A stretch of DNA of 64,000 nucleotides from Vicinamibacterales bacterium. Its GTDB lineage: Bacteria; Acidobacteriota; Vicinamibacteria; Vicinamibacterales; UBA2999. Each line of letters begins with the position of its first letter. Positions within the stretch are counted from its first letter, which is position 1. Where the stretch lies: positions 107,374-171,373 of the forward strand of contig JAWKHS010000005.1 of assembly GCA_041394705.1 (NCBI GenBank). Direction: 5' to 3'. The translations under genes and the position numbers were made by a program. Of this stretch, positions 1,880 through 55,328 are shown piece by piece. The notes beneath the pieces are model-generated. The model searched no databases. It was not told the DNA's origin and saw only the letters and a list, made by a program, of their open reading frames with translations.

Positions 1880-2938
1880 TCAGGGAATGGCGTCGAACCG
1901 GAACACGGAGTCCGAGGTGGCCGCGATGAGCTCGCCGGCGGGGCCGAACGCGATGCCGACCAGGCCGGGGCCGGCCACCACGGGCCGCCGCGGCGCGCCG
2001 ATCGACACGCGGTGTACGGCCGCCGCCCCGGCCAGCGCGTCCACGACGTGCAGGACGCCGTGCCGGTCGAAGGCGAGCCCCTGGGGACGCCCGAACGCCC
2101 GGTCGATGACCTCACACCGGCCGTCGGCGTCGAAGCGGTAGACGGCGTCGTGCGTCGCCAGCGTGGGTCCGGTGACGTACAGCCGCTCGTCCGGTCCCAT
2201 CGCCAGGTGATAGGCCGCGACGCTCGGGGGGAGGGTGGCGAAGGTCTGCGTGCGCGCGCCGTCGGGCGCCACGCGGTGAATCGTGCCCGTCCGATCCCCC
2301 ACGAAGAGGGTGCCATCGGGCGCGAACGCCAGTCCGCACGCCACGCCGAGCTCGGTGGCGAACGGCTCGGCGCGTCCCTCGGGGCTCACGCGGTAGACGG
2401 CCCCATCGAAGCGGCTCGACACGTGGAGCACGCCGGCCGGCGAGAAGGCCAGGCTCGTCGCGTTGACGATGCCCTCGACGAACGGCTCGCGCCCGCCGTC
2501 GGGACCGATGCGGTAGACCGAGACCGGCACCTGCTGGCCCCGCGGGCCGCTGAAGGCACAATAGAGGCGGCCCTCGCCGTCGAAGGCCGGACTGTCCACG
2601 GTGTGGAGGCCAGTGGCCAAGGGCACGCCGACCGTGACGAACGCCGTGGCCCCGGGGGACCACGCCGCCCGGACCGGCACGGCCCCGGGGTTCCGCAGTA
2701 CGGGCACCTCCACCGCCACGCGGTCCGGGGAAGAGAACAACACGCGAGCGGCCGCGCCGCCGATCGAGACCGCGGCGTCGGCGGCGGTCACGGGAGGCAG
2801 ACCCTTGCCACGCAGCCATAGCCGCGCCCCAGGCAACACGCACGGCGGGTCGATGCCGGTCAGCGTCGGGACGGCGGGAGCCACGGCGCCGATCGTAGCG
2901 CACGCGGATGGGCCTCTGGTACGATCCGCCGATGACAT
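1880..2938 (-). CDS. IPT/TIG domain + NHL/SMP-30-like beta-propeller protein
   Basis: 352-aa ORF. The N-terminal PTLTGIDPPCVLPGARLWLRGKGL...AVEVPV is IPT/TIG-like. It is followed by repeated blades (GLAFSPAGVLHVSS, GLAFAPDGTLFVGD, GLAFDRHGVLHVVD, GIAFGPAGELIAAT) as in NHL/SMP-30/gluconolactonase propellers. An in-frame GTG at 2884 is an alternative start that removes the divergent overlap with the next gene. Confidence 0.75.
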   Translation of the reverse strand: MSSADRTRGPSACATIGAVAPAVPTLTGIDPPCVLPGARLWLRGKGLPPVTAADAAVSIGGAAARVLFSSPDRVAVEVPVLRNPGAVPVRAAWSPGATAFVTVGVPLATGLHTVDSPAFDGEGRLYCAFSGPRGQQVPVSVYRIGPDGGREPFVEGIVNATSLAFSPAGVLHVSSRFDGAVYRVSPEGRAEPFATELGVACGLAFAPDGTLFVGDRTGTIHRVAPDGARTQTFATLPPSVAAYHLAMGPDERLYVTGPTLATHDAVYRFDADGRCEVIDRAFGRPQGLAFDRHGVLHVVDALAGAAAVHRVSIGAPRRPVVAGPGLVGIAFGPAGELIAATSDSVFRFDAIP

Positions 2939-3639
2939 GCCCCGGCTGCGGCCAGGAGATGGCGGCGCTGTCCCTGGCCGGCCATTACGGGCGAACCATC
3001 GCCATCGACGTCTGCCACGGCTGCAACCACGTCTGGTTCGATGCCCAGGAGGACCTGCACCTCGCGCCCGGTGGGGTGCTGGCGCTGTTCGAAGACATGG
3101 GCCGGGCCGCGCAGGAGGCGCGGACCGTCGTGGCGGCGCGCAAGCCGTGCCCGCGATGCGGCTCGGGCCTCCTGCGGACGCGCGATCGCATCAAGACGAC
3201 GCCCTACGAATACTTCCGGTGCACGCAGGGCCACGGGCGCTTCATGGGCTTCGGCGCGTTCCTTCGGGCCCGCCGCTTCGTCCGGGACCTGGATGCCGCC
3301 GAAGTATCGCGCCTGCGCGCTGACGCCCGCGTCATCAAGTGCGTGAACTGCGGCGCCTCGACCGACATCACCGTGGAATCGGTGTGCCAGTACTGCCGGG
3401 CGCCGATCGCGGTGCTCGACGCCGACCAGCTCTCGAAGACGCTGGCCGACCTCGAGGCGGCAGAGGCCGCACGGGGCAAGGTCGATCCATCGTGGCCGCT
3501 CAAGGCCGCGCAGGTGCGGCGTGAAACCGAGGCCGCCTTCGCCGCACTGCAGGGCGGCCGCGGTACGACGCCCCACCTGGACCTCATCGAGGCCGGCCTG
3601 GCCTTGTTCGCAAACGTCATCAGCGCCCTTCGTCGCTAG
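2932..3639 (+). CDS. zinc-ribbon (zf-TFIIB-type, CxxC...CxxC) domain protein
   Basis: The track ORF is 2908..3639. I prefer the ATG at 2932 (MTCPGCGQEM...), because zinc-ribbon proteins usually begin at the first CxxC and TGGTACGAT sits 6 nt upstream. Three CxxC pairs are present: CPGCG...CHGCN, CPRCG...RCTQGH, CVNCG...CQYC. Confidence 0.7.
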   Translation: MTCPGCGQEMAALSLAGHYGRTIAIDVCHGCNHVWFDAQEDLHLAPGGVLALFEDMGRAAQEARTVVAARKPCPRCGSGLLRTRDRIKTTPYEYFRCTQGHGRFMGFGAFLRARRFVRDLDAAEVSRLRADARVIKCVNCGASTDITVESVCQYCRAPIAVLDADQLSKTLADLEAAEAARGKVDPSWPLKAAQVRRETEAAFAALQGGRGTTPHLDLIEAGLALFANVISALRR

Positions 3640-3667
3640 TGTTCCGAACCGAAGTTCGGTGACAAGT

Positions 3668-4349: not shown

Positions 4350-4363
4350 GGGTCGTGACGCTC

Positions 4364-4392
4364 ATTGTGGACAGCCCCGCACGGCGTGTCAA
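4364..4392 (-). promoter_or_regulatory. sigma-70-type promoter of the HNH gene: TTGACA - 17 nt - CACAAT
   Basis: The reverse strand reads TTGACA CGCCGTGCGGGGCTGTC CACAAT, followed by 14 nt and then the ATG at 4349. The -35 is perfect, the spacer is 17 nt, and the -10 matches 4 of 6 positions. Confidence 0.55.
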
Positions 4393-4490: not shown

Positions 4491-5006
4491 GTGCGAGCCC
4501 TCGTCCCCGTCGTCCTCACCGCCGCCTTGTCCGCGGCCTGCGCCTCGGGCCGCGCCGTCCCGCGTCCCGGACCGGCGGGCGCGGTCGGCCCTCCCGCCGG
4601 GGAGGTCACGCCGGAGGCCTCGTCGCCGGGCGTCGCGCTCGGCCATCGGCTCGTGGCCGACGCGCTGGAGCTTCGCGGAACGCCCTACCGCAACGGCGGC
4701 ACGGACCCGCGCACCGGCTTCGACTGCAGCGGGCTGGTCAGCTACGTGTTCAGCCGCCGCGGCCTGGCGGTGCCCCGGCAGACCAGCGCCCAGTTCAAGG
4801 CGGGCGAAGCGGTCCCGCGCGACAGGCTCCAGCCGGGCGACCTCGTGTTCTTCTCCACCGTCGCGCCCGGCGCGTCTCACGTCGGCATCGCGATCGACGA
4901 GGACGAGTTCGTCCACGCGCCCAGCAGCCGGGGCGTGGTCCGCGTGGAACGCCTCACCCTGCCCTATTGGCGGACGCGGTTCATCGGCGCCCGCCGGATC
5001 CGCTGA
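4491..5006 (+). CDS. NlpC/P60 (C40) family peptidoglycan peptidase, lipoprotein
   Basis: The track ORF is 4365..5006. I place the start at the in-frame GTG at 4491, giving VRALVPVVLTAALSAACASG, a signal peptide with a lipobox. C40 catalytic motifs are present: GFDCSGLVSYVF ... GDLVFF ... SHVGIAI ... FVHAP. Confidence 0.85.
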   Translation: MRALVPVVLTAALSAACASGRAVPRPGPAGAVGPPAGEVTPEASSPGVALGHRLVADALELRGTPYRNGGTDPRTGFDCSGLVSYVFSRRGLAVPRQTSAQFKAGEAVPRDRLQPGDLVFFSTVAPGASHVGIAIDEDEFVHAPSSRGVVRVERLTLPYWRTRFIGARRIR

Positions 5007-5024: not shown

Positions 5025-5732
5025 TCAGCCGGCGGGCGGGTCGGCGGCGCCCATCCGGCCGAGGATGATTTGCTGCCGCCGGAGGAGGCGCCGCGTCGGC
5101 CTCGCGGGGTTGTGCACGCGGGGATTGATGATGGCGCCCGCCATCAGCGCCGCCTCGGCCGGCCCGAGATCGGCCGCCGACTTCCCGAAATACGCGCGGG
5201 CCGCCGCCTCGCACCCGAAGATGCCATCGCCCCATTCGATCGAGTTCAGGTAGATCTCGAAGATGCGCCGCTTGGACAACGCCGCCTCGAGCCGCCGCGT
5301 GATGATGAGCTCGATCAGCTTGCGGGTCGGATTGCGCGACGGCGACAGGTACAAGTTCTTCGCCAGCTGCTGCGTGATCGTGCTGGCGCCGCGCAGGGCC
5401 ACGCCGTCCTCGAGGCTCGATTCGATCGATTCCCGCAGCTGCTGGTAGTCCACGCCTTCGTGCTGGAAGAACGCGCTGTCCTCCGCCACCAGGACCGCCC
5501 GCTTCAGCTGCGTCGAGATCCGTCCGTAGGGCACCCACCGGCGCCGCAGGGTGAACGTCCTGCCGTCGCGCCGGGCCTCGTCGCGCCGCAACTCGATGAA
5601 CGCGGTGGTGTCGGGATTCTGCGAGACGAGGACGCGCACGTCGGGCAGGGTGAGATAGACGTACGCAATGTAGGCGAACGCGACGCCGAGGGCGCCGGCG
5701 ACCCAGCGGGGCCATCGGGAGCTGCGCGCCAT
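5025..5732 (-). CDS. mtgA: monofunctional biosynthetic peptidoglycan transglycosylase (GT51)
   Basis: 235-aa ORF with an N-terminal membrane anchor. GT51 motifs are present: EDSAFFQHEGVD, GASTITQQLAKN, RKLIELIITRRLE, KRRIFEIYLNSIEWG. TATAAT lies 8 nt upstream of the ATG. Confidence 0.9.
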   Translation of the reverse strand: MARSSRWPRWVAGALGVAFAYIAYVYLTLPDVRVLVSQNPDTTAFIELRRDEARRDGRTFTLRRRWVPYGRISTQLKRAVLVAEDSAFFQHEGVDYQQLRESIESSLEDGVALRGASTITQQLAKNLYLSPSRNPTRKLIELIITRRLEAALSKRRIFEIYLNSIEWGDGIFGCEAAARAYFGKSAADLGPAEAALMAGAIINPRVHNPARPTRRLLRRQQIILGRMGAADPPAG

Positions 5733-7446: not shown

Positions 7447-8373
7447 TCAGGTCGTCGCGGGATCCGCGTCCATCGACGCCGGCTCGACCAGGGGCACGCC
7501 CAGGTCGGTGAGCATCCGGCGCAGTTGTCCGATCACCGACGGCGGCGTGGGCCCGAGTGGCGCGCGCGGCAGTCCGCCGTCGTAGCCCATCAGGTCGAGC
7601 GCCGCCTTGAGAGCGGGCACGCCGTGCAAGCCTCCGATGGTGCGGGCCAGCGGCGTCAGCGTGCGCTGCAGGGCACGCGCCTCGAGGAACCGGCCCGCGC
7701 GCACGTGGTCGAGGAGGTCCGCACACAGGTCGGGCACGAGGCCGGCCAGCGCCAGGATCGCGCCATGGGCGCCGGCGGCGAGGCCGGTGAAGTACGTGAC
7801 GCCGCTGCCCGCCAGCACGAAGAACTCGGGGCCCGAGCGCGAGATGTAGTCCGCCAGCAGCGACGCATCGCTGCCGGATTCCTTCATGCCCACGATGTTC
7901 GGATGCTCGGCCAGCAGGCCGACCGCGTCCGGTGGCAGGGTCACGCCCGTGTACATCGACACGTTGTAGAGCAGCACGGGCACGGGGCTGGCCTCGGCGA
8001 CGGCCACGTAGTGGCGCACGAAGACGTCGGCCGTCATCATGTTCTTGAAGAACGAGGGCGTCCGGACGAGCACGGCGTCGGCGCCGGCGCGGGCCGCGCG
8101 CAGCGTCGCGGCGATGGTGGCCTTGGTGGACTCGGCCCCCGTGCCGGCGATGAGGGGCCGCGTGGACGGCATGGCCGACCGCGCGGCGGCGATGACTCGC
8201 TCGGCTTCGGAGTCGTCGAGCATCACCGCTTCGCCGTTGGATCCCAGCACGACGAGGCCCGTGAGCCGCGTCTGCATGTACCGCTCGACGTTGCGGTGCA
8301 GGGCCGCATCGTCGACGGTGTCGTGGTTGAACGGCGTGACGATGGGCGTGTACAGACCAGCGAGCGGAGACAT
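7447..8373 (-). CDS. dihydrodipicolinate synthase/N-acetylneuraminate lyase (DapA) family enzyme
   Basis: 308-aa ORF. Motifs: TPIVTPF, VLGSNGE, LYNVSMYTG, and the Schiff-base lysine context IVGMKESG. It starts 9 nt after the stop of the upstream ABC permease gene. The exact substrate cannot be called from sequence. Confidence 0.85.
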   Translation of the reverse strand: MSPLAGLYTPIVTPFNHDTVDDAALHRNVERYMQTRLTGLVVLGSNGEAVMLDDSEAERVIAAARSAMPSTRPLIAGTGAESTKATIAATLRAARAGADAVLVRTPSFFKNMMTADVFVRHYVAVAEASPVPVLLYNVSMYTGVTLPPDAVGLLAEHPNIVGMKESGSDASLLADYISRSGPEFFVLAGSGVTYFTGLAAGAHGAILALAGLVPDLCADLLDHVRAGRFLEARALQRTLTPLARTIGGLHGVPALKAALDLMGYDGGLPRAPLGPTPPSVIGQLRRMLTDLGVPLVEPASMDADPATT

Positions 8374-12540: not shown

Positions 12541-14226
12541 ATGACTCGTCGCCTCCTTGCCGTCATCGCTGCTCTCGCAATCGCCGTTCCGGCGGCCGCC
12601 GCGGGCTCGCAGCGGCGTGCTCGTCTGTCTGCCGACCTCCGAGCGGAAGTCGGCCGGGGGAACACCAACACCGTGCAGGTGATCGTCGACGGCGACGACG
12701 CGACGATCAGCCGCATCCTGTCGCGCCACCCGCTGGACCTCAAGCGGCGGCTGCGCCACGGCGCGGTCGTCGAGGTGCCTGCGGGCCAGCTCGACGCCCT
12801 GGCCGGCGACCTCGACATCGGCAAGCTCTCGTCGAACGCGCTGGTCACGTCGCACATGGCACTGACCACGGCGACGACGGGCGCCGACGCTGCCCTCGCG
12901 GGCCTCGTCGAGACGCTCGGCGCCGTGAACGGCTCGGGCGTGGGTGTGGCCGTGATCGACTCCGGCATCGCGCGCCACCGGTCGCTGAACGGGAAGGTGA
13001 TCGCCCGGGTGGACTTCACGGCCGACGGGCGTGGGCGCGACGGCTACGGCCACGGCACGCACGTGGCCGGCATCGTCGCCGGCAGCGCCCTGCCGGGACG
13101 CAACGGCGGCGCGGCGGGCATGGCCCCCGGGGCGAACCTGATCGACCTTCGCGTGCTCGGTGACGACGGCTCTGGCGACGTCGCCTCCGTCATCGAAGCC
13201 GTCGACTGGGCCGTCGAGAACCGCGGCCGCTACAACATCCGCATCATCAACATGTCGCTCGGCACCGCGGTGACGCAGTCCTACAAGGACGACCCGCTGG
13301 ACCAGGCCGTGGAGCGCGCCGTGCGCGCGGGCATCCTCGTGGTGGCATCGGCCGGCAACCGCGGCCAGACCGAGGACGGCCGCATCGTGATGGGCAGCAT
13401 CACGGCCCCCGGCAACTCCCCGTACGTCCTGACCGTCGGCGCCGTCCGCGCCAACGGGACGGTCGGCCACGAAGACGACACGCTGGCCCCCTGGAGTTCC
13501 CGCGGTCCGACGCTCTACGACTACGTCATCAAGCCCGACATTGCGGCCCCCGGCAGCATGATCACGGCCGCTGGCGTCGACGGCTCCACCCTGGCCCAGA
13601 TTCGTCCGGACCGGCTCATCGGCCGCGGCGCGAACGCCTACATGACGCTCAGCGGCACCAGCATGTCGGCGGCCGTCGTCAGCGGCGCGGCGGCCCTCCT
13701 GATCGATGCGAACCCCCGCCTGACGCCGCTTGGCGTCCGCCTGGCTCTTCAGGCCTCGGCCGACTTCCTGCCCGACGCCGGCCTCCTCGGCGCGGGCGCG
13801 GGCGACCTGAACCTTGCCGGCGTGCTGCGCGACGGCGCCAAGCTGCCTACCCGCACGACGGCGGACCTCTTCCCGGTCAGCTGGGGCGTGAAGGTCAACC
13901 AGGAAATCGTCAACTGGAGCGGCGTCCGCGGTGACGCGTTGGTGTGGGGCGACACGCTGGTCTGGGGCGACGCGCTGGTCTGGGGCGACGCGCTGGTGTG
14001 GGGCGATACGCTGGTGTGGGGCGACACCCTGGTGTGGGGTGACACGCTGGTGTGGGGCGACACCTTGGTCTGGGGCGACGCGCTAGTCTGGGGAGACACC
14101 TTGGTCTGGGGCGAGGCGCTGGTGTGGGGCGACACCTTGGTGTGGGGCGACTCAATCATCTGGGGCAATTCCATCATTTGGGGCAATTCGATCATCTGGG
14201 GCAACTCCATCATTTGGGGAAACTGA
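12541..14226 (+). CDS. secreted S8 (subtilisin-family) serine peptidase with C-terminal Trp-hexapeptide repeat tail
   Basis: 561-aa ORF. The signal peptide is MTRRLLAVIAALAIAVPAAAAG. Catalytic triad contexts are VAVIDSGI (Asp), GHGTHVAG (His) and SGTSMSAAVVSG (Ser). The last 98 residues are 16 tandem hexapeptides. Confidence 0.92.
   Translation: MTRRLLAVIAALAIAVPAAAAGSQRRARLSADLRAEVGRGNTNTVQVIVDGDDATISRILSRHPLDLKRRLRHGAVVEVPAGQLDALAGDLDIGKLSSNALVTSHMALTTATTGADAALAGLVETLGAVNGSGVGVAVIDSGIARHRSLNGKVIARVDFTADGRGRDGYGHGTHVAGIVAGSALPGRNGGAAGMAPGANLIDLRVLGDDGSGDVASVIEAVDWAVENRGRYNIRIINMSLGTAVTQSYKDDPLDQAVERAVRAGILVVASAGNRGQTEDGRIVMGSITAPGNSPYVLTVGAVRANGTVGHEDDTLAPWSSRGPTLYDYVIKPDIAAPGSMITAAGVDGSTLAQIRPDRLIGRGANAYMTLSGTSMSAAVVSGAAALLIDANPRLTPLGVRLALQASADFLPDAGLLGAGAGDLNLAGVLRDGAKLPTRTTADLFPVSWGVKVNQEIVNWSGVRGDALVWGDTLVWGDALVWGDALVWGDTLVWGDTLVWGDTLVWGDTLVWGDALVWGDTLVWGEALVWGDTLVWGDSIIWGNSIIWGNSIIWGNSIIWGN
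13930..14223 (+). repeat. in-frame tandem repeat, 16 x 18 nt (+6 nt), encoding (G-D-[AT]-L-V-W)x12 then (G-[DN]-S-I-I-W)x4, G-N
   Basis: I read the repeat unit by unit: ggtgacgcgttggtgtgg / ggcgacacgctggtctgg / ... / ggcaactccatcatttgg / ggaaac. Differences between units are almost all synonymous: ggc/ggt/gga, gac/gat, ctg/ttg/cta, gtg/gtc, atc/att, tcc/tcg/tca. Confidence 0.95.
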
Positions 14227-16562
14227 AGCCCGAGCGTTGCCACTTCGAGAATTACTGGGCAGCGAGCACTCGACTGCCGTCGTAGGAACCCGAGGTAATA
14301 TATGAAGCCGCTCATCATCTGGGGCGAGTAGCCAACCGTTTCCTCCCGCTGTGGTAGACACTCGTCGTAGCGCCATCGGTCGTGTCTACCTCTGGGCGGT
14401 GCCGGCGGCCGGAATAGGGACGTTGGCGTGGGCTGTCACTGACCTCCTAGCCCATTCCCCGTCCCCTTACTGGATCGCGCTGGCGACTCTGACCGCCCTT
14501 ACCGGCTCGTTCACGGTAAAAATTCCTGGCATGGTGGCTCGGCTGTCGGTTTCCGAGCCATTCGTCTTTGCGGCTGCCCTCCTGTTTGGCCCCGCCGCTG
14601 GCACTGCTACGGTAGCGATCGACGCGTGCGTCATGTCGCTTCGGCTAATGCCGAGCTTGCGGACGCCTCACCGTGTTCTGTTCAACGTCGGCACCCTGGT
14701 ACTGTCGGTCGCGAGCTCTTCGTGGGTATTCTTCATCCTTTCTGGCATTGACCCGCGGGCACCGGAATACCCTTCAGTCGACTCCTTTATCTGGCCGCTT
14801 TACGCCTTCAGCGCTTGCTGCTTCTTTGTGAACAGCGGGTTGGTTGCGCTGGCGTTAAGCGTCGAGCGCAAGAGCTCGCCCGTAACGATCTGGCGAGAGC
14901 AGTTCATGTGGCTTTCGGTGAACTACTTCGCCGGCGCTTCGGTGGCTGCGCTCATTGTCGTCTTCGCCCGAACTGTCGACGTCGCGATACTTGGAATCGT
15001 CATTCCGCTGATTGCCATTTCTTACCTAACATTCCGCACAACCCTGGGCCGTCTAGACGACGCAAACAAGCACCTTGGCGACTTGAATTCGCTATACCTG
15101 TCGACCATCGAAACGCTCGCGATGGCGATCGACGCCAAGGACCAAGTGACCCACAGTCACATCCGCAGGGTACAGCGATACGCCACCGGCCTAGCGCGCG
15201 CGCTGGGAATACAAAACGAAAAGCAAGTCAAAGCAATCGAAGCGGCAGCACTCCTGCACGACATGGGCAAGCTGGCAATCCCTGAGTTCATATTGAACAA
15301 ACCCGGCAAGCTCACTAGTCGGGAGTTCTCGGTGATGAAGACCCACGCAGCCGTCGGGGCTGACCTGTTGTCGTCTATCCGGTTTCCTTACCCCGTCGTG
15401 CCAATCGTGAGACACCATCACGAGAACTGGGATGGAAGTGGCTATCCGGACGGCCTCCGCGGTCCCGCAATTCCAATCGGAGCCAGGATCCTCGCCGTTG
15501 TCGACTGCTACGATGCTCTTACTTCTCATCGACCGTACAGGCCAGCGCTCTCGGCCAGTCAAGCCCTAGAGATTCTGACGCAGCGGCGCGGCAAGATGTA
15601 CGACCCACTGGTCGTCGATGCATTTGTTCGCGAGCATGCCTCACTGAGCACGCAGGCCGAGTTGCAGGACTTCCCAACCGTTCTGCTCGCGACTCAGGCG
15701 GACGCCACGCCTGAACCCATTGACGACAAACTTGAGCAGCAAGACACGCCAATCGAGTCGCTGCGCCTTCTGGCCAGCGTGTCGGCGTTTCCAGGAGGTC
15801 CTCCAACTCGAGTCGTGTGCCGGCAGCTTGTCGACAGCTTGCACGCACTCGTGCCGTTTGACACGGCGGCTGTGTTCGTCCTTAGCGAGGCTTCAAGCGA
15901 TGCCGAGGTGCTGTATGTCGATGGCTCCGCCGCGCATGTCCTCACCGGGCAGCGTATCCCGATAGCGGAGCGCCTCACTGGCTGGGTTGCTGCACACCGG
16001 ACGGCGGTGTGGAATTCGGACGCAAGGCTTGATCTTGGACCGATGAATGCGAGCACCACGCTTTCGCTCGGCTCCAGCCTGCCGCTCTACCAGAACGAGA
16101 CTCTCTTTGGCGTGCTCTCGCTTTACGGTCGCCCCGAGCACGAGATCACCGTTGGCCAGCGACGCGCGCTGGAGTCATTGCTTCCCATTCTATCGGCACA
16201 CATTGGCGATTCCCTGGCACGTCCTGGTACTGCGATTGACTGCACCGCACCGCAGCCTCGAGAGGCAGCTTTGTCTGCGCTTGAGTCGCTGCTTTCACAC
16301 AATCGCCGCAGCAGCTCTGAGGACGCGGTTGCAATCGTGGCCGTCGCGATGTCTGCGCTAGTTTCAGACGGTGCGCCGCAGAATTCACTAGAAGCAGCGA
16401 CCCGGACTCTTGCGGTTCGGCTTTCGCCAACCGTCGCATCAAAGCGATGTGTTCTAAAGATTGCCGATGGGCATCTGCTCTTGTGCGGACTGGATAGCGT
16501 GGACGCCACCGAACTTGAGCAAGAAGTATTGACGGCGGCGAAAGTCTCGGCCCTGCAGCCAT

Positions 16563-19466
<2,904 letters not shown>

Positions 19467-26023: not shown

Positions 26024-26111
26024 GGGGGCATCTTAGAACGTGCAAGGACCGGTGAGCAGGAATACGGGACCGGGCCATCTCCCCTGGCCCCGGGTCCCGG
26101 ATCCCGGGTCA

Positions 26112-33692: not shown

Positions 33693-33715
33693 GGCGGGGC
33701 TCGGGGCTCGGGGCT
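33691..33715 (+). repeat. G-tract element AGGGCGGGGCTCGGGGCTCGGGGCT (left arm of a 25-bp inverted pair; G-quadruplex-type motif)
   Basis: It starts inside the TAG stop of the desaturase gene. It has four G-runs separated by 1-3 nt. Its partner is at 33835..33859. Confidence 0.8.
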
Positions 33716-33729
33716 GCTGAATGCTGAAG

Positions 33730-33765
33730 GAGCCGGCACCGGTGGGTGCCGGCTCTTTCTTTTCC
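33730..33765 (+). terminator. rho-independent terminator of the desaturase gene
   Basis: GAGCCGGCACC-GGTG-GGTGCCGGCTC forms a perfect 11-bp stem with a 4-nt loop, followed by TTTCTTTTCC. It lies 38 nt after the stop codon. Confidence 0.8.
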
Positions 33766-33834: not shown

Positions 33835-33859
33835 AGCCCCGGGCCCCGGGCCCCGCCCT
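33835..33859 (-). repeat. right arm of the inverted pair (reverse complement AGGGCGGGGCCCGGGGCCCGGGGCT, 23/25 identical to the left arm)
   Basis: Compared by hand. The only mismatches are two T/C positions. It ends 5 nt before the TACAAT box of the histidine-kinase gene. Confidence 0.8.
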
Positions 33860-33876
33860 CTGACTACAATCCCTCC

Positions 33877-37228: not shown

Positions 37229-37297
37229 GCGTCTGACGACCCGCAGGGAGCAGGGACCAGGGATCGCGGACGGGCGCCGAGGCGGAACGACCGCCCG

Positions 37298-45527: not shown

Positions 45528-45998
45528 CTAGTGCGACAGCAGGGCGGTGACGCGGCCGGAGGCCGTCTGGTAGTACTCCGCGTCGTAGGTCGAGAAGCGG
45601 ACCAGGAGCAGCCGCGGATCGCTCGCTCCGCCCGGGAACCAGCGGCGGAACGTCGGCCGCCACATCTTCCCGATCACGACGGAGTCGGTGATCACTTCGG
45701 CCCGGCCCGACAGGCTCAGGTACACGCGCTCGTCCGGGCTCTGGAACGTCAGGGTCACGACCTGGCGCCGCTGCGACTCCCAGTCGAGCAGCGTGCGCGC
45801 GTCGGCCAGGAACCACAGCACGCGGGCGTCGTCGGGCGCGCGGTCGGGCGCGTGGATGGCGCCGAGTCCCTCGGCCGTCATGAGCACGGCTGGTTCGAAT
45901 CGTTCGAGGGTGCGCGCTGCCAGCGGCAGGGCGTCCAGGCCGCGGATGTGATCGAACGCCGGCGGCGGCGGGGTCGGGGAGGCAGGCGCCACGTGCAC
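45528..45998 (-). CDS. pyridoxamine 5'-phosphate oxidase-like (general stress protein 26-type) FMN-binding protein
   Basis: 156-aa ORF with a GTG start. The stretch LWFLADARTLLDWESQRRQVVTLTFQSPDERVYLSLSGRAEVITD...WFPGGASDPRLLLVRF is typical of the split-barrel family. Confidence 0.7.
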   Translation of the reverse strand: MHVAPASPTPPPPAFDHIRGLDALPLAARTLERFEPAVLMTAEGLGAIHAPDRAPDDARVLWFLADARTLLDWESQRRQVVTLTFQSPDERVYLSLSGRAEVITDSVVIGKMWRPTFRRWFPGGASDPRLLLVRFSTYDAEYYQTASGRVTALLSH

Positions 45999-46154
45999 AT
46001 TAGGATAGACCCTCCCGCGGTGCCTGAGTCACGCGTCGCCCGCACTTTTTTCGGCGGGGCGTGTCCTGAGGCGCCCGCCGGTCCGCCAACGCAGGCCCAC
46101 GGCGGCGCCGTCCGCCGTACAATCGGCCGGCGCCGCGGAGGGCGTGAGACGCCG

Positions 46155-46613
46155 ATGGCCGGACGAGTACGACGCATTTGGGTGAAGCGCAGCCACGGCG
46201 GCGTGATGGACGAAGTCCGGGACGCCGATCTCGTCGAGGGGCGGGGCCTCTCGGGCAGCGCCACGCAGGGCGGCTTCCGGCAGGTCACGCTGATGTCGCT
46301 CGATCGGTGGCAGGCGCTCACGGCGCACCTGGCCGGGCCGCCGGATCCCGCGGTCCGCCGCGCGAACCTGCTCGTGGACGGCCTGGACCTGGCCGACTCG
46401 CGCGGCCGCGTGCTCGCGATCGGCGATGCCCGGATCGAGATCGTGGGCGAGACGAGGCCCTGCCGGCAGATGGACGAGGCCTGCCCCGGGCTGCAGGCGG
46501 CGCTGTCGCCGCCGTGGGGCGGCGGCGCCTTCGGCCGCGTGCTGCGCGGAGGTGCGATCGCGGTGGGCGCCCCGGTGGACTGGGCCCAGGAGCCGCCGCA
46601 CGCGCCGGACTAG
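46155..46613 (+). CDS. MOSC domain-containing protein
   Basis: Internal ATG at 46155, preceded by GGAGGG. The sequence reads VKRSHGGVMDEV...GRGLSGSA...RQVTLMSLDRWQ...RANLLVDGLDL...IGDARIEIVGETRPCRQMD, including the conserved MOSC cysteine context. Confidence 0.8.
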   Translation: MAGRVRRIWVKRSHGGVMDEVRDADLVEGRGLSGSATQGGFRQVTLMSLDRWQALTAHLAGPPDPAVRRANLLVDGLDLADSRGRVLAIGDARIEIVGETRPCRQMDEACPGLQAALSPPWGGGAFGRVLRGGAIAVGAPVDWAQEPPHAPD

Positions 46614-47287
46614 AGTCCGAACACGGCCAGTCCCAGCCACGCGGTGATGCGGCCGGTGTGGGGCTCGACGAGCGCCTTGTTCCTGGCCGGGGCGTCGGGC
46701 AGATCGACCTCAGGGATCTCCACGCGGCTGCCGTCGGTCATCGCGCGGATGACCCGCTCGAGGTCCCGCGCGTCGTAGCGCACGGCGTTCAGGCCGGCGG
46801 CCTGGTAGACGCGGCCGCGCACCCACGAGAACTCGGCGCGGGAGAAGCCTGCGTCGTTCATCGCCACGACCTGGGCGCGCCAGGCCTCCAGGTAGATCTG
46901 CGAGAGGTCGGCGACGGCGCCGAGCAGGTCCGGCAGCGTGGGCACGGGCGTGGTGCCGTCGGGCCTCTGGCGCGTCAGCTCCCGGTACTTCGCCGTGAAC
47001 GCGCCGGCGCGCTCCCCGAGCGCCCGCTCGACGCCGGCCTGGACCCGCAGGAAGCGCGCCACCTGGTCGCCGGTGAGTTCGCCCGACGGAGGCGGATCGT
47101 AGGGGGTGGTGTTGGTCAGCCCGCGTTCGATGGCCGAGACGTCGCCCAGCTTCCTGACGCCCGAGGTGACGTCGGCGACTTTCTCGGCCACGGGCTGCGC
47201 GGTCCGCCACACCATCACGGCGGCGATCGCGGCCAGGACGCCGCACGCGACCGACGCCAGCAGGCACCCCGCCAGCCACTTGCGCAT
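46610..47287 (-). CDS. hypothetical membrane-anchored protein
   Basis: 225-aa ORF with an N-terminal TM segment (LAGCLLASVACGVLAAIAAVMVW). Composition is balanced and codons are G/C-ending. I recognise no motif. TAGCAT lies 7 nt upstream of the ATG. Its stop overlaps the MOSC stop (CTAG). Confidence 0.6.
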   Translation of the reverse strand: MRKWLAGCLLASVACGVLAAIAAVMVWRTAQPVAEKVADVTSGVRKLGDVSAIERGLTNTTPYDPPPSGELTGDQVARFLRVQAGVERALGERAGAFTAKYRELTRQRPDGTTPVPTLPDLLGAVADLSQIYLEAWRAQVVAMNDAGFSRAEFSWVRGRVYQAAGLNAVRYDARDLERVIRAMTDGSRVEIPEVDLPDAPARNKALVEPHTGRITAWLGLAVFGL

Positions 47288-47345: not shown

Positions 47346-47921
47346 ATGACACACCTCACTCGACCCACCTGGATCCTCGCGGCAGCCCTCGCCGCAGCTC
47401 TCGTGCCACGCGCCGCATCCGCCGACCTCCGGGCCACCGGCTTTGCAGGCAGCGCGCGGATCAACGAGACGAACAAAGGCACGTTCGGCGGGGCCGTCAC
47501 TTTCGGGGGCCTGCTCGGCATCGAGTTCGACGCATCGCGCATCTCGCTGGGCACCCTGGCCGACGTCGACGTGGCGGAAGTGACGGCGAACATCACCACC
47601 TACATGGGCAACCTCGTGGTCCGCGCGCCCACCGGCCCCATCCAGCCCTACGCCTCGGCGGGCGTGGGGGTCGTTCGCGTGACGGGCGACGTCAAGGTCC
47701 CGTTCGTGGGCAGCCTGGTCAGCGCCAGCGCCAGGGACGCGGCCTGGAACCTGGGTGGCGGCGTCTACGTGATGCCGTCCGAGAACTTCGGGCTCCGGGC
47801 CGACCTGCGCCATTTCCAGACGTCCGACGTCACGTGGGAGGACATCACGGGCCTGAACGACCTGCCGCTGCCGAAGTTCGACTTCTGGCGCGCGACCGTC
47901 GGTCTCACCGTGAAGTTCTGA
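47346..47921 (+). CDS. outer-membrane beta-barrel protein (OmpW/OmpA-like small porin family)
   Basis: Internal ATG at 47346. The signal is MTHLTRPTWILAAALAAALVPRAASA. The body has alternating amphipathic strands, Gly/aromatic girdles, and a C-terminal ...WRATVGLTVKF ending in Phe. TACAGT lies 6 nt upstream. Confidence 0.75.
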   Translation: MTHLTRPTWILAAALAAALVPRAASADLRATGFAGSARINETNKGTFGGAVTFGGLLGIEFDASRISLGTLADVDVAEVTANITTYMGNLVVRAPTGPIQPYASAGVGVVRVTGDVKVPFVGSLVSASARDAAWNLGGGVYVMPSENFGLRADLRHFQTSDVTWEDITGLNDLPLPKFDFWRATVGLTVKF

Positions 47922-48047: not shown

Positions 48048-50057
48048 TCAGGGCAGGTTGTCGATGGGCACCGGCGCCAGCGTCCCCGCGGGCGTGAAGC
48101 CCAGCACCTTCCCGTAGAAGTACAACTCCGACTCGAGCGCCCGGACGATGTTCTCGGCCTTGCGGAAGCCGTGCTGCTCGCCGGGGAAGGTCACGTACGC
48201 GACGGGCAGGCCCTTCTTCCGCACGGCGTCGGCCATCATCGCGGACTGGTTCGGTGGGACCACCTTGTCGTCGAGCCCCTGGAACAGGATGAGCGCGCAG
48301 TTCAGCCGGTCCACGAAGTGGATGGGCGAGCGCTCGCGATACGTCGCCTGCATCGCCGGGAAGGGGCCGACCATCGAGTCCAGGTAGCGCGACTCGAACT
48401 TGTGCGTGTCGGTCGCGAGCACCTCGAGGTCGCTGATGCCGTAGTAGCTCGCGCCGGCCTTGAACGTGTCGTGGAACGTCAACGCCGCGAGCGTCGTGTA
48501 GCCGCCGGCGCTGCCGCCGCGGGTGACGAGCCTGGCGCCGTCCGCCTTGCCCGCGGCGACGAGGTAGCGCGCGGCGTTCACGGCGTCGCGGACGTCCACC
48601 ACCCCCCACTGCCCGTTGAGTCGCCGCCGGTACGCGCGGCCGTACCCGGTGCTGCCGCCGTAGTTCACGTCCACGACCGCGAAGCCCCGCGTCGTCCAGA
48701 ACTGCACCTCCGGATCGAAGACCGCGTCGGTGGCGCCCGTGGGTCCGCCGTGGCTCACCACGAGGAGCGGCGGCGCCGTGCCTGGGGGCGCCGCGAAGTC
48801 CGGGTTCGTGGGCGGATAGTAGAACGCGTGGGTGGCCTCGCCCCCGCTGTCGAACGTGATGGCCTCGGGGCGCGAGACGAACGCGGCCGCCAGCGTGTCC
48901 TCGCGCGAGCGCCGCAGCACGTCCCCGCTCCCGCCGTCGGCCGGCACACGGACGATCGCCGGGCCCTCGGTGTCGGAGCCTCCGACGAAGTAGACCGCGC
49001 TGCCCGTCGCCACCACCGCGTCCAGGGGCTCGAGAGCCAGGTGCCACGGTTCGAGGCGCCGGGGCTCGAGCGACAGCAGGCCCATGCGCCAGCGGCCCCC
49101 GTCCGCCCACGTCACGACGAGGCGGTCCGCCGACTGGAAGCCATAGGTCGTGGTGCCGAACTGCCACTGCGGCTTGCCGAAGTCGTTCGGCATCGCGTGC
49201 ACGGCCTCGACCACGTCGCCGCGGCGTCGGTACAGGTTCCACCAGCCCGATCGATCCGACATGAAGAACAGCACGCCGTCGGGCGACCAGCGCGGCTGGA
49301 AGACGCTTTCGTCCGATCCCCCAGCCACCTTGACGGCGGCACGCGGCACACCGCGGGCGTCGAGATCCGCGACGTACAACTCGGTGCCATCCCACGGCAT
49401 GTTCGGATGGCGCCACTGCAGCCATGCCAGGCGCGCGCCGTCCGGACTCAGGACCGGATCCGAGTAGAAGTCCGCGCCCGACGCCAGCGTCGTGCCCGCC
49501 TGCGGCGTCGAGGTGTCCAGACCGATCGCCACGATCGCGGCCGGCGGCTGCTGGCCGCTGGCGGTGTGGTCCTCGCGGACGCACAGCAGGCGGTTCCGGC
49601 CCTCGTCCACCTGACACTGCGCGAAGAAGTACCCGGGGATCGTCAGCGGCCGCGGCGCCTGGCCGTCGGCCAGCGCGTACACCCGCTGGTCGCCGAAGCT
49701 CGACGCGTAGACGGCGCCGCGATGGACCGTGAAGGCCGCCCCGCCGTACTCGTGGACGCGCGTCCGCACGTTGAAGTCGGCGGGCGTGACCTCGACGGCC
49801 GGTCCGGCCGCCGAGCGCCGCATCAGCACGCTCCGCCCGCCTTCCGAGGCCCGGCCTTCCAGCCAGTACACGTCGTCGCCGTCGAGCACGATCTGCCCGA
49901 GCCTGAGGGCGCCGGCCGTGGCGCCGGTCGCCGAGAGGGGCGACGCCCACGCGCCGTACGGCGCGACCGTCGCCGCCGTCCCTCCCCCCGTTGCCCCGCC
50001 CCCGCATCCCGCCATCGCCAACCCTCCCGCGGTGATCGCCGACGTCCACCAACGCAT
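48048..50057 (-). CDS. S9 family serine peptidase (prolyl oligopeptidase/acylaminoacyl-peptidase type) lipoprotein
   Basis: 669-aa ORF. The signal MRWWTSAITAGGLAMAGC carries a lipobox. An N-terminal beta-propeller is followed by a C-terminal alpha/beta domain with the nucleophile GGSAGGYTT, then QGLDDKVVP and GEQHGF. TAAGAT lies 6 nt upstream of the ATG. Confidence 0.9.
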   Translation of the reverse strand: MRWWTSAITAGGLAMAGCGGGATGGGTAATVAPYGAWASPLSATGATAGALRLGQIVLDGDDVYWLEGRASEGGRSVLMRRSAAGPAVEVTPADFNVRTRVHEYGGAAFTVHRGAVYASSFGDQRVYALADGQAPRPLTIPGYFFAQCQVDEGRNRLLCVREDHTASGQQPPAAIVAIGLDTSTPQAGTTLASGADFYSDPVLSPDGARLAWLQWRHPNMPWDGTELYVADLDARGVPRAAVKVAGGSDESVFQPRWSPDGVLFFMSDRSGWWNLYRRRGDVVEAVHAMPNDFGKPQWQFGTTTYGFQSADRLVVTWADGGRWRMGLLSLEPRRLEPWHLALEPLDAVVATGSAVYFVGGSDTEGPAIVRVPADGGSGDVLRRSREDTLAAAFVSRPEAITFDSGGEATHAFYYPPTNPDFAAPPGTAPPLLVVSHGGPTGATDAVFDPEVQFWTTRGFAVVDVNYGGSTGYGRAYRRRLNGQWGVVDVRDAVNAARYLVAAGKADGARLVTRGGSAGGYTTLAALTFHDTFKAGASYYGISDLEVLATDTHKFESRYLDSMVGPFPAMQATYRERSPIHFVDRLNCALILFQGLDDKVVPPNQSAMMADAVRKKGLPVAYVTFPGEQHGFRKAENIVRALESELYFYGKVLGFTPAGTLAPVPIDNLP

Positions 50058-50220
50058 GGAGCGATCTTACCGGGGGCTCGGAGCCCTCGGCTCGAAGCCA
50101 GGGTTCGGGGGCGCCGGCGTGAGGCCGTGGGCGCCCGATTGCCTCCCGACGTCCCGGGTCATCGGCGCGAGGCACTCCCGGGTCCCGAGCCCCGAGCCCC
50201 TGACTGTATAGTTACTGCCC

Positions 50221-51144
50221 GTGGCGACCCTCGGCGTCGTGGTGCCCGTGTACAACGGGGAGCCGACGCTCCATGAACTGCATCGACGCCTCACGGCGCA
50301 GTTGTCGGCCCTGGCCGACGACTGGCAGGTCGTGTACGTCGACGACCGCAGCCCCGACCGGTCCTGGGAGATCCTCGAAGGGTTCGCCGCCGCCTCGCCC
50401 CGGGTACGTGCGCGCCGGCTGATCCGGAACTACGGCGAGCACATCGCGATCACGGCCGGGCTCGACGAGGTGGACGCGGACCACACGTTCATCATGGCGT
50501 GCGACCTCCAGGACGACCCGTCCGCCATGCCGGCGCTCCTCGAGGCCGCGCGGACGACGGGCGCCGATCTGGTGCTGACGCGGCGCATGCGGCGGCAGGA
50601 CGCGGTGCTCAAGCGGCTCCTGGCGCGCCTCTTCTACCTGGTGGTGCAGTTCCTGGTGAAGGTGAAGTACGACCACCGCGTCGGGAACTACCGCCTGGTC
50701 AGCCGCCGCGCCGTCACGATGTTCCGCGAGTACCGGGAGCGGACGCGGAACGTGAACGCGATCATGGCCATCATGGGCGTGCCCACCACGACGGTGGACG
50801 TCCAGCACCAGCCCCGGGGCGGCGGGTCGAGCGGCTACACGCTCTCGCGGTCGGCGCGGCTGGCGTTCCACGTGCTGGTCGGATACTCGGAGGTGCCACT
50901 GCAGCTCGTCGTGCTGCTGGGCGTCACCATCTCGGCCATCGCCGCCGTCGCCTTCGCGCGCCTGCTCGTGGCGCCGGCCGATCCGGACCCGGCCGTGCAG
51001 GCCATCCACACGGCCGCGGCCCTCCTGGTGCTGATCGGGGGGTTCATCGTCCTCGCCATCGGCACCGTCGGCGTCTATCTCACGAAGAGCTTCGTCGAGT
51101 CGATGAAGCGGCCGCTTTATTTCGTCGCCGACCGCCGGGGGTGA
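50221..51144 (+). CDS. family 2 glycosyltransferase (polyprenyl-phosphate sugar transferase-like, 2 C-terminal TM)
   Basis: 307-aa ORF with a GTG start. Motifs: VVVPVYNGE, VVYVDDRSPD, the DxD-like MACDLQDDP, and C-terminal TM helices as in ArnC/DPM1-type GT2 enzymes. Confidence 0.85.
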   Translation: MATLGVVVPVYNGEPTLHELHRRLTAQLSALADDWQVVYVDDRSPDRSWEILEGFAAASPRVRARRLIRNYGEHIAITAGLDEVDADHTFIMACDLQDDPSAMPALLEAARTTGADLVLTRRMRRQDAVLKRLLARLFYLVVQFLVKVKYDHRVGNYRLVSRRAVTMFREYRERTRNVNAIMAIMGVPTTTVDVQHQPRGGGSSGYTLSRSARLAFHVLVGYSEVPLQLVVLLGVTISAIAAVAFARLLVAPADPDPAVQAIHTAAALLVLIGGFIVLAIGTVGVYLTKSFVESMKRPLYFVADRRG

Positions 51145-53431: not shown

Positions 53432-53456
53432 GCGTCCGGCACCGTATACTCGCGCC

Positions 53457-55328
53457 ATGACGCGCGCCTTCCGTTCGCCCCGCCCGCTCCTGCCGGCCGT
53501 GGCCCTGGCCGCCCTCGGCGCCCTGGCCGCCGCCGCGCTCGACGCCCGCCAGCCGGCGCCGAATCCCGCCGACGGCTTCACGGTGCGGGACGAGATGATC
53601 CCGATGCGGGACGGCGTGAAGCTCTTCACCAAGATCTTCATCCCGAAGAACCAGGCGGGTCCCCTGCCGATGGTGTTCCGGCGGACGCCGTACGGCATCG
53701 ACGGCGCGGCGGGGTCCTTCGTGCGCTACTACAAGGCGCTCGTGGACGAAGGCTACATCTTCGTCTTCCAGGACATCCGCGGGAAGTTCCGCTCCGAGGG
53801 CACGTTCGTGATGCAGCGTCCGGCGCGCGCGCCCGGCGACACGACGAGCCTCGACGAGGGCACGGACACGTACGACACCATCGAGTGGCTCCTGAAACAC
53901 GTGCCGCAGCACAACGGGCGCGTGGGGATGCTGGGCGTCAGCTACGACGGCTGGACCACCATCATGGGCGCCGTAGAGCCGCACCCGGCGCTGAAGGCGA
54001 TCTCGCCGCAGGCCTCGCCCGCCGACATGTGGCTGGGTGACGACTTCCACCACAACGGGGCCTTCCGCCTGAGCTACGCGTTCGAATACGCCACGATGAT
54101 GGAGTCGGGCAAGGACGTCCAGCAGTTCAGCTTCGACCGCTACGACACCTACGACTGGTATCTCGCGCTCGGGCCGCTCTCGGCCGTGAACCGCCGCTAC
54201 CTCCGCGAGTCGATTCCCACGTGGAACGACTACGTGCGCCATCCCGACTACGACGAGTTCTGGAAGCGGCAGACGATGATCCCGCACCTGCGCTCGGTGC
54301 TGGTGCCGACGCTGAACGTGGCGGGCTGGTGGGACCAGGAGGACTTCTACGGGCCCATCACGATCTACTCGGCGCTCGAGAAGTTCGACACGGCCGGCAT
54401 GAACTACCTCGTCGTGGGACCGTGGAACCACGGCGGCTGGACGCGGGACGGCACGGCGCTCGGGCCCATCGGCTTCGGCAGCGACACCGCGGCCTACTTC
54501 CGCGACCAGGTGCAGGCGCCGTTCTTCGCCTACTTCCTGAAGGACAAGGGCACGCGCGACTTCCCCGAAGCCCTCACCTTCGAGGCCGGCGCGAATCAGT
54601 GGCGGCGCTGGTCGCAGTGGCCGCCCGTCAGGGAGACGAAGACGATGGGCCTGTACTTCGGCGCCGACGAGGCCCTGCGCCTGTCGGAAGCCGCGCCCGC
54701 CGGCGCGACGGGCTTCGACAGCTTCGTGTCCGACCCGGCGCACCCGGTGCCGTACCGCCACCGGCCCATCCAGGCGACGTACTTCCCCGGCGGCTCGAAG
54801 TGGTCCACGTGGCTCGTGGAGGACCAGCGCTTCGTGGACGACCGTCCGGACGTGCTCAGCTGGGAGTCGCCGGCCCTGACGGAGGACGTGACGATCGCGG
54901 GCGAGGTCGTGGCGAAGCTCTTCACGTCCACGACCGGCTCGGACGCGGACTGGGTCGTGAAGCTGATCGACGTGTATCCGGAGTCGCGGCCCGACGACTG
55001 GAGCCTCGCCGGCTACCAGCTCATGGTGTCGAACGAAGTGTTTCGCGGACGCTACCGCCGCGGCTTCGAGACGCCGGTGCCGATGACGCCCAACGCCGTG
55101 GAGCCGATCACGTTCAGCCTGCACACCCAGAACTACACGTTCAAGGCGGGCCACCGGATCATGGTGCAGGTGCAGAGCACGTGGTTCCCGCTCATCGACA
55201 GGAACCCGCAGACCTTCACGAAGAGCATCTTCGACGCCACCGAGAAGGACTTCGTCCGGGCCACACACCGCGTGTACCGCTCGTCCCGCTACCCGTCGCG
55301 GGTCGAGATACCCGTCGTGTCCCGCTGA
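53457..55328 (+). CDS. CocE/NonD family hydrolase (S15 X-Pro dipeptidyl-peptidase fold), exported
   Basis: 623-aa ORF with the signal MTRAFRSPRPLLPAVALAALGALAAAAL. Motifs: RTPYG, the nucleophile context GVSYDGW, and C-terminal jelly-roll-domain motifs (DVYP ... RGRYRRG ... HRIMVQVQSTWFP). TATACT lies 6 nt upstream of the ATG. Confidence 0.9.
   Translation: MTRAFRSPRPLLPAVALAALGALAAAALDARQPAPNPADGFTVRDEMIPMRDGVKLFTKIFIPKNQAGPLPMVFRRTPYGIDGAAGSFVRYYKALVDEGYIFVFQDIRGKFRSEGTFVMQRPARAPGDTTSLDEGTDTYDTIEWLLKHVPQHNGRVGMLGVSYDGWTTIMGAVEPHPALKAISPQASPADMWLGDDFHHNGAFRLSYAFEYATMMESGKDVQQFSFDRYDTYDWYLALGPLSAVNRRYLRESIPTWNDYVRHPDYDEFWKRQTMIPHLRSVLVPTLNVAGWWDQEDFYGPITIYSALEKFDTAGMNYLVVGPWNHGGWTRDGTALGPIGFGSDTAAYFRDQVQAPFFAYFLKDKGTRDFPEALTFEAGANQWRRWSQWPPVRETKTMGLYFGADEALRLSEAAPAGATGFDSFVSDPAHPVPYRHRPIQATYFPGGSKWSTWLVEDQRFVDDRPDVLSWESPALTEDVTIAGEVVAKLFTSTTGSDADWVVKLIDVYPESRPDDWSLAGYQLMVSNEVFRGRYRRGFETPVPMTPNAVEPITFSLHTQNYTFKAGHRIMVQVQSTWFPLIDRNPQTFTKSIFDATEKDFVRATHRVYRSSRYPSRVEIPVVSR

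Follow-up and report, generated by a model that had tools for sequence, protein, structure and literature searches.

A −10-like hexamer six to eight nucleotides before start codons in a Vicinamibacterales locus: probable promoters of leaderless mRNAs

Why does a short A/T-rich hexamer, TAnnnT, recur at almost the same distance before the start codons of a G+C-rich acidobacterial genome? The question is raised by a 64,000-nucleotide stretch of a Vicinamibacterales metagenome-assembled genome (MAG) (assembly GCA_041394705.1, contig JAWKHS010000005.1, positions 107,374 to 171,373 of the forward strand), hereafter the window. A preliminary description of the window listed eleven genes in which TAnnnT ends 6, 7 or 8 nt before the start codon and proposed that their mRNAs are leaderless. 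All eleven combinations of hexamer, spacer and start codon are present at the positions and on the strands given there, and the proteins read from the eleven chosen start codons are identical to NCBI entries in the range MEZ5290753-798. The hexamers are very probably −10 elements of promoters placed at the start codon, and the mRNAs leaderless. This proposal is supported by a spacing peak, conservation in orthologues, operon position and depletion of Shine–Dalgarno sequences, all of which agree. The eleven sites, the three further occurrences at 2884, 4491 and 8373, and one terminator are given below (d, the number of nucleotides between the hexamer and the start codon, is stated as 'nt before').

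2892..2897 (−), TACGAT, 7 nt before GTG 2884 of an SGL/Vgb-lyase-like gene (1880–2884)
2920..2925 (+), TACGAT with an extended −10 (TGgTACGAT), 6 nt before ATG 2932 of a zf-TFIIB zinc-ribbon gene (2932–3639), protein MEZ5290753
4477..4482 (+), TACTCT, 8 nt before GTG 4491 of a C40/NlpC-P60 peptidase gene (4491–5006), protein MEZ5290755
5741..5746 (−), TATAAT, the perfect consensus, 8 nt before ATG 5732 of mtgA (5025–5732), protein MEZ5290756
8380..8385 (−), TAGACT, 6 nt before ATG 8373 of a DHDPS-family gene (7447–8373)
26030..26035 (−), TAAGAT, 6 nt before ATG 26023 of a cysteine-synthase-family (CysK-like) gene (25112–26023), protein MEZ5290771
31732..31737 (−), TACCAT with an extended −10 (TGcTACCAT), 7 nt before ATG 31724 of an M20 peptidase gene (30300–31724), the first of a four-gene operon, protein MEZ5290775
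33726..33759 (+), intrinsic terminator after a desaturase gene, a 15-bp stem followed by a T-run
33865..33870 (+), TACAAT, 6 nt before ATG 33877 of a histidine kinase (HK) gene (33877–34782), protein MEZ5290778
39536..39541 (+), TACCAT with an extended −10 (TGcTACCAT), 7 nt before GTG 39549 of a PEGA-domain gene (39549–40370), protein MEZ5290784
47295..47300 (−), TAGCAT, 7 nt before ATG 47287 of a hypothetical envelope or lipoprotein gene (46610–47287), protein MEZ5290792
47334..47339 (+), TACAGT, 6 nt before ATG 47346 of an outer-membrane beta-barrel protein (OMP) gene (47346–47921), protein MEZ5290793
50064..50069 (−), TAAGAT, 6 nt before ATG 50057 of an S9 peptidase gene (48048–50057), protein MEZ5290794
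50207..50212 (+), TATAGT, 8 nt before GTG 50221 of a GT2 glycosyltransferase gene (50221–51144), the first of a three-gene operon, protein MEZ5290795
53445..53450 (+), TATACT in a 25-nt intergenic gap, 6 nt before ATG 53457 of a CocE/NonD hydrolase gene (53457–55328), protein MEZ5290798

TAnnnT is scarce in the window (100 copies on both strands), whose composition is 14.9% A, 14.2% T and 70.9% G+C, and 22 of these copies precede an ATG or GTG by 6–8 nt. The motif stands at 14 of about 53 gene starts and at 8 of 3,599 other ATG or GTG codons (Fisher p = 8e-22; p = 1e-15 when the eleven originally listed sites are used alone). The positional background of the hexamer upstream of genes is about 0.5% per position; the chance rate of about 1% of genes estimated in the preliminary description is right for the genome-average composition, and the observed rate of about 20% given there is also about right. 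In dinucleotide-preserving shuffles, TANNNT-N6-ATG is expected 1.56 times, compared with 8 observed, a number reached in 1 of 100 shuffles. With blind start calls, in which either the first start in the open reading frame (ORF) or the start with the best coding score is taken and the motif is not consulted, nine hexamers fall in the bins d = 6–8, against about 0.25 per bin at d = 9–40 (Poisson p = 1e-7). Approximately 12–13 of the 53 or so genes are assigned to the promoter-at-start mode, which corresponds to about one third of transcription units (12–13 of about 38; manual assignment). The gene map underlying these counts was made with a self-trained codon-usage caller and patched with Pfam, which added atypical genes that the caller had skipped (those at 14.3–17.5 kb, a phytase-like gene and the OMP gene). 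Pfam also agrees with the gene labels: Transgly (mtgA), PALP (CysK-like), M20, HisKA/HATPase, PEGA, OMP beta-barrel, S9, GT2 and S15/CocE. In the window as a whole, 21 proteins are identical to NCBI entries MEZ52907xx (Vicinamibacterales MAG), and Rfam and tRNA scans returned no matches.

The same spacing is seen across the clade. Searching with the window S9 peptidase retrieved mainly MAG contigs of Vicinamibacterales and other Acidobacteriota (at most 93% identity), from which 48 related loci comprising 873 kb of Vicinamibacterales DNA were used for the clade-wide tests (loci are designated by L numbers, e.g., L015 and L081; L110 is a close relative with a deposited annotation). A spacing histogram of the kind suggested in the preliminary description gives enrichment at d = 6–8 in the window and in these relatives. 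Compiled independently of gene calls, it counts 121 copies of TAnnnT-N6-ATG in the related loci, 48 with N7 and 32 with N8, against about 20 per other bin, i.e., 6.0-, 2.4- and 1.6-fold over background at d = 6, 7 and 8. GTG has a smaller peak (1.6- to 1.7-fold at d = 6–7), and ATG makes up about 76% of the excess. The control triplets TTG, CTG, ACG and ATC give no spacing peak in the same histogram, and the peak is likewise absent from loci of Chloroflexota and cyanobacteria that the same query returned. Independent metagenome loci anchored on the M20 gene have it (2.2- to 2.8-fold). Blind calls for 668 genes of the relatives place 56–64 hexamers at d = 6, 25–29 at d = 7 and 12 at d = 8, against 2–5 per other bin, and the in-frame spacings 0, 3, 9 and 12 are at background level. 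When the proteins of the syntenic loci are clustered into 229 families for weighting, the peak persists (10.1, 6.3 and 2.2 at d = 6, 7 and 8 vs. about 1). In blind start calls for the related loci, the motif is found at 20% of first-in-operon candidates.

At the level of single genes, the hexamer of 8 of the 11 is kept 6–8 nt from the start codon in orthologues with diverged flanking DNA. In about 21 orthologues of the hypothetical gene at 47287, TAnnnT lies 6–7 nt before ATG or GTG and the remaining upstream DNA is unalignable. In 11 of 13 orthologues of the OMP gene, TACAGT or TAGAGT lies 6 nt before ATG (5 nt in L001); the CocE gene has TATACT 6–7 nt before ATG in all five, and the CysK-like gene TAGGAT-6-ATG in L081, L083 and L088, with diverged flanks. 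For M20, about 20 relatives, the most distant at 55% protein identity, have TGn followed by TACCAT, TACCCT or TACGAT 7–8 nt before ATG, and for PEGA the string 'catgctaccat...GTG' is kept in L015, L023, L081, L083 and L088. Most close orthologues of S9 have a hexamer 6–8 nt before the first ATG; in both the S9 and the M20 families the length of the N-terminus varies, and the hexamer shifts with the first ATG. For the zinc-ribbon gene and mtgA, L110, a very close relative, provides the sole possible comparison, and both hexamers are kept there. The GT2 gene behaves differently at a start codon that is itself conserved: among L001–L017, eight orthologues have TATAGT 6, 7 or 8 nt before GTG and no Shine–Dalgarno sequence, and seven have GGAGG(G) 3–4 nt before the same GTG and no hexamer. 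Hexamer and Shine–Dalgarno sequence are thus mutually exclusive here, and, judged from these alignments, one initiation signal appears to have been exchanged naturally for the other while the start codon stayed the same.

The features of the sites are those of promoters. The motif precedes 3.0% of operon-internal genes; where the neighbouring gene is divergent or the intergenic gap measures 25 nt or more, the figure is 14–27% (p = 2e-7). The only operon-internal case in the window, 8373, is accounted for by a stop codon. A promoter therefore fits this rarity before operon-internal genes, and a general ribosome-binding motif does not. In a position weight matrix, the T, A and T do not vary and the interior of the hexamer is enriched in A. 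T-12, A-11 and T-7 are the positions read by sigma region 2, and in sigma-70 geometry a 6-nt spacer puts the A of ATG at +1. The matrix gives no signal for a −35 element, and a scan for the two-hexamer sigma-70 consensus matches none of the 14 sites; they therefore work like −10-only promoters, and the promoter call is carried by the −10 hexamer by itself. An extended −10 TG had been ascribed to several sites. Canonical TGn is present at three (2932, 31724 and 39549), and the 'ctgTATAGT' of GT2 is not canonical; three of 14 exceeds the 5% expected (p = 0.03), with no overall enrichment in the matrix. In M20 and PEGA, which have the weak hexamer TACCAT, the orthologues keep TGn. In three divergent pairs, each gene has its own hexamer and the start codons are merely 47 (SGL-like and zinc-ribbon genes), 58 (hypothetical gene at 47287 and OMP gene) and 163 bp (S9 and GT2 genes) apart, gaps so short that there is no room for leaders.

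The absence of a Shine–Dalgarno sequence at the eleven sites holds: AGGGA (OMP) and GGGA (mtgA) abut the start codon and are too close to act as one. In comparisons whose reference groups use first-in-ORF starts, often too far upstream, a Shine–Dalgarno motif is found in 6% of motif genes vs. 20% of others, anti-Shine–Dalgarno pairing is weaker in motif genes (p = 1e-4), and their first 36 nt are less stably folded (−6.1 vs. −8.9 kcal/mol, p = 5e-5). A gene-call-free histogram of GGAGG, GGAG, GAGG and AGGA was swamped by the 3-nt periodicity of codons, and starts were inspected singly instead. The Shine–Dalgarno strings previously quoted for other genes are present, and the two kinds of gene coexist in the window (Shine–Dalgarno-led genes: 20544, 36707, 44360, 46155, 55372, 59113 and 59323).

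These features can be combined into a simple model. TAnnnT would be the −10 element of a housekeeping, sigma-70-type, −10-only promoter, with the TGn extension where the hexamer is weak (TACCAT). RNA polymerase would start at the first base of the start codon (A or G) or 1–2 nt earlier, producing mRNAs with neither a 5′ untranslated region nor a Shine–Dalgarno sequence, and their 5′-terminal AUG or GUG would be recognised directly by ribosomes carrying initiator tRNA. The remaining genes would be initiated by ordinary Shine–Dalgarno sequences of the GGAGG type. Spacers of 7–8 nt imply a leader of 0–2 nt. We infer the position of the transcription start and the mode of translation from knowledge of sigma-70 and from differential RNA sequencing (dRNA-seq) in Deinococcus and mycobacteria. 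Every computational prediction of the leaderless-promoter interpretation that could be tested was borne out.

Several points weigh against this interpretation. In addition to the missing −35 signal and to the reference starts used in the Shine–Dalgarno and folding tests, synteny of the related loci inflates the raw counts, and with family weighting and blind start calls the motif is found in about 8% of gene families. The agreement with NCBI start codons is not fully independent evidence, because the NCBI pipeline uses GeneMarkS-2, which models the motif. The d = 8 sites (mtgA and GT2) probably have a leader of 1–2 nt rather than none. Four relatives with 87% protein identity (L081, L083, L085 and L088) lack the HK hexamer. 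In the literature, no mapping of transcription start sites (TSSs) was found for any acidobacterium. Finally, the S9 gene has a second ATG at 50015, 14 codons downstream of the first, with a strong Shine–Dalgarno sequence, GGGAGGG. Individual sites thus differ in strength, HK and S9 being weaker.

The S9 case leads to the alternative that survives best, namely that the promoters are real but the true start codons lie downstream, so that the transcripts have ordinary leaders that happen to begin with AUG or GUG. The well-spaced GGGAGGG before ATG 50015 speaks for this alternative, and the coding-score caller favoured 50015; for M20, PEGA and the zinc-ribbon gene, too, it chose starts further downstream. 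However, a promoter needs only a purine at +1, yet ATG is enriched 6-fold at d = 6 and ACG and ATC are not. The proposed starts also fit the proteins that they open: 8 of the 11 are the first possible start codon in the ORF; domains begin at residue 2 (CysK, PALP), residue 6 (GT2) and residue 3 (zinc knuckle, CPGC at residues 3–6, with the Pfam match at the N-terminus); 8 of 14 proteins open with a charged n-region and then a hydrophobic stretch of the signal or anchor type; signal peptides run from the proposed Met; and N-terminal protein sequence is kept from the proposed start in orthologues. A downstream start preceded by a Shine–Dalgarno sequence is found near no gene other than S9, whose lipoprotein-type signal peptide needs ATG 50057 and would be lost with a start at 50015. 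Mis-called starts are therefore unlikely in general, though less so for S9, and as an account of the whole pattern this alternative is improbable.

The second alternative, for which the odds are longer still, is that the hexamer acts in RNA rather than in DNA, as a non-Shine–Dalgarno, A/U-rich ribosome-binding or S1-binding motif in longer leaders, as in 'group B' of GeneMarkS-2 (Bacteroidota). An A/T-rich element at the position of a ribosome-binding site in a GC-rich genome, with no −35, would be consistent with it. Such a motif should, however, precede operon-internal genes as well, and the frequencies there are 3% vs. 14–27%; the invariant T-12, A-11 and T-7 match sigma region 2, and TGn is kept where the hexamer is weak; the divergent genes 47–58 bp apart have no room for promoters further upstream; and GGAGG is used elsewhere in the genome and replaces the hexamer in GT2 orthologues.

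The remaining alternative, a scarcely credible artefact of chance or composition (A+T-richer intergenic DNA, stop codons beginning with TA and a circular choice of starts), can point to the preliminary description having let the motif guide the choice of starts, to the upstream TAG that explains site 8373 and to the fact that at d = 6 the hexamer is in frame, so that a hexamer beginning with TAA or TAG closes the frame and the ATG after it is necessarily the first start of its ORF, but it is already refuted by the positional, control-triplet and conservation tests, since the peak is limited to d = 6–8 with neighbouring and in-frame spacings at background, is seen without gene calls and with motif-blind starts, is absent in other phyla and kept across orthologues, and exceeds the shuffles (8 vs. 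1.56).

With the leaderless-promoter interpretation thus preferred, the individual sites can be described further. The site at 2884 (−) is a good additional one that the preliminary description did not list; its GTG is the start in the deposited annotation of L110, and the SGL-like gene diverges from the zinc-ribbon gene. The site at 4491 (+), likewise absent from that list, is ambiguous and doubtful as a leaderless start, because GGGAG sits in its spacer. The mtgA hexamer lies inside a 57-nt gap after an M48 peptidase gene, the same start is given by an independent Logan gene call, and the transcript is expected to have a leader of 1–2 nt. The DHDPS-family gene belongs to an ABC-transporter operon (binding-protein, two permease and DHDPS-family genes); as a promoter, site 8373 (−) is probably coincidental, since the permease gene upstream ends with its TAG and the DHDPS-family gene is operon-internal. 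Two other candidates were rejected. At 17430 (+), TACGCT-7-ATG lies within a sigma-54 activator gene for which a relative's call of 904 aa puts the start far upstream, and the protein versions from 17430 and 17571 are unmatched in the collection. At 59130 (−), TAGTGT-6-ATG opens an ORF of merely 17 codons and was treated as chance.

The terminator at 33726–33759 lies upstream of the HK gene, and the HK operon, in which a response-regulator gene follows the HK gene, is therefore a separate transcription unit; TACAAT is the sole TAnnnT from the terminator to the HK ATG. Relative to L081, L083, L085 and L088, the window has about 13 extra nt, 'tgacTACAATccc' (33860–33872), directly before this ATG. 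On comparison of these sequences, the segment looks like a recent gain of a leaderless promoter, or a loss in the others.

The PEGA gene diverges from an ATP-grasp gene, and 44 bp separate its GTG from the ATP-grasp start at 39504. The segment 39533–39541, 'ATGCTACCAT', contains overlapping −10-like hexamers on the two strands, TACCAT (+) and TAGCAT (−), the latter 27 nt before ATP-grasp ATG 39504, which has GAGG upstream. The whole 10-mer there is kept in L015, L023, L081, L083 and L088. This arrangement suggests a putative bidirectional promoter that would pair one leaderless gene with one leadered gene.

The hypothetical gene at 47287 and the OMP gene are transcribed away from each other, as are the S9 and GT2 genes. 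The sole full sigma-70 consensus in the window, TTGACA-17-CACAAT at 4364–4392 (−), ends 14 nt before the start codon of an HNH endonuclease gene, ATG 4349. The leader predicted from it is about 7 nt long and has no Shine–Dalgarno sequence, and the consensus is kept in L110. Start choice is also at issue in a pyridoxamine-phosphate-oxidase-family gene (45992–46020, −), in which either of two GTG codons 6 nt apart could be the start. GGGAGGG stands before GTG 45998. NCBI chose GTG 45992 (154 aa), which has TATCCT 9 nt upstream, and the lengths given by public gene callers range from 154 to 157 aa.

Tandem heptanucleotide arrays also occur in the intergenic DNA. Period-7 arrays are strictly intergenic, with 27 perfect arrays of at least three copies and none in coding DNA, compared with 0, 4 and 2 non-coding arrays of periods 5, 8 and 10. 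Those in the window are at 33691–33715 and 33835–33859, 50073–50086 and 50180–50200, 26089–26110, and 37243–37263; examples in relatives are L002 9946–9973, L010 41–69, L008 14123–14143 and L037 15206–15258. The repeat unit varies by genome at the same orthologous promoter (GTCCCTG, GTTCCCT, CCCGAGC, CCAGCCC and TAGCCGC). The window arrays form inverted pairs around intergenic segments (25 nt, 92% complementary, 119 nt apart). Arrays lie just upstream of the −10-only hexamers of 7 of 56 motif genes, compared with 3 of 219 others (p = 7.5e-4). They resemble the STRR repeats of cyanobacteria, and we know of no description of such arrays in Acidobacteriota. A speculative and rather doubtful idea is that the −10-only modules, which often abut arrays in the place of the −35, have functional neighbours rather than neutral filler, the arrays acting as spacers or insulators between back-to-back promoters or as slippage-prone modulators of expression.

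A different repeat is found at 13933–14224, where an in-frame 18/36-nt tandem repeat (about 12 + 4.6 copies, 83–86% identity, units TGGTGTGGGGCGACACGC and TGGGGCAACTCCATCATC) occupies the 3′ end of a gene ending at 14226. The protein would have a C-terminal region built of repeated 6-residue units; the L110 homologue of this gene has no Pfam match. In the adjacent region, 14300–17500, codon usage is atypical and the caller score near zero for an HD-GYP/GAF gene and, in its 5′ part, for the sigma-54 activator gene. The deposited calls of the close relative (649 aa for HD-GYP/GAF and 904 aa for the sigma-54 activator) point to starts near 14726 and 16752.

The noteworthiness of the pattern was overstated in the preliminary description, as the signature is textbook for GeneMarkS-2 'group C' and was already predicted for Acidobacteria. 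Current understanding is unchanged: the phenomenon, its signature and its presence in Acidobacteria are published, and the signature is built into the gene finder of NCBI. The practical value lies elsewhere. In MAGs of Vicinamibacterales, which are abundant, barely cultured soil bacteria, start codons can be fixed by means of the −10 box. About a third of transcription units would need no ribosome-binding site, which is relevant to heterologous expression and reporter design. The switch in GT2 bears on how easily leaderless and Shine–Dalgarno-led initiation interconvert.

One of the closest known systems is the class of 'TA-led' genes, in which leaderless genes are marked by a TANNNT whose first T lies about 12 bp before the start; in silico, this signal was found in three of three Acidobacteria genomes, at 9.7–19.4% of genes (Zheng et al., 2011; PMC3160421). 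The same study reported that orthologues switch between Shine–Dalgarno-led and leaderless initiation and that the three middle positions of TANNNT carry little information in high-GC genomes (Zheng et al., 2011; PMC3160421). The signal is the same here, a first T at about 12 bp being equivalent to d = 6, and the orthologue evidence for individual promoters is given here and not there. To our knowledge, none of the three acidobacterial genomes is from Vicinamibacteria, a class named later. In 'group C' genomes, a Pribnow box lies 6–8 nt from the start of first-in-operon genes and 25–50% of operons are leaderless (PMC6028130). The box and spacing are those of the window, where Shine–Dalgarno sequences likewise coexist for internal and remaining first genes and where the proportion of about one third of transcription units falls within that range. 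Group C comprises Actinobacteria and Deinococcus-Thermus, however, whereas the present lineage is a Gram-negative-type acidobacterium of the Vicinamibacterales. In Deinococcus deserti, dRNA-seq and proteogenomics placed 47% of TSSs exactly at the start codon and 60% of transcripts were leaderless overall, with the −10 directly upstream of AUG or GUG, no conserved −35, and Shine–Dalgarno sequences on leadered mRNAs only (PMC4007540). A −10 at the start, no −35 and GTG starts are common to D. deserti and the window, but TSSs were mapped there and are inferred here, and the fraction is lower here (about 20–25% of window genes). In mycobacteria, experimental studies by Cortes in 2013 and Shell in 2015 reportedly found TANNNT promoters of the −10-only kind, with a 5′-terminal AUG or GUG being sufficient and about a quarter of mRNAs leaderless. 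The arrangement here is the same TANNNT −10-only one, which was validated by experiment in mycobacteria, and what the window adds is that a known architecture is recognised in a lineage for which it had previously not been made explicit.

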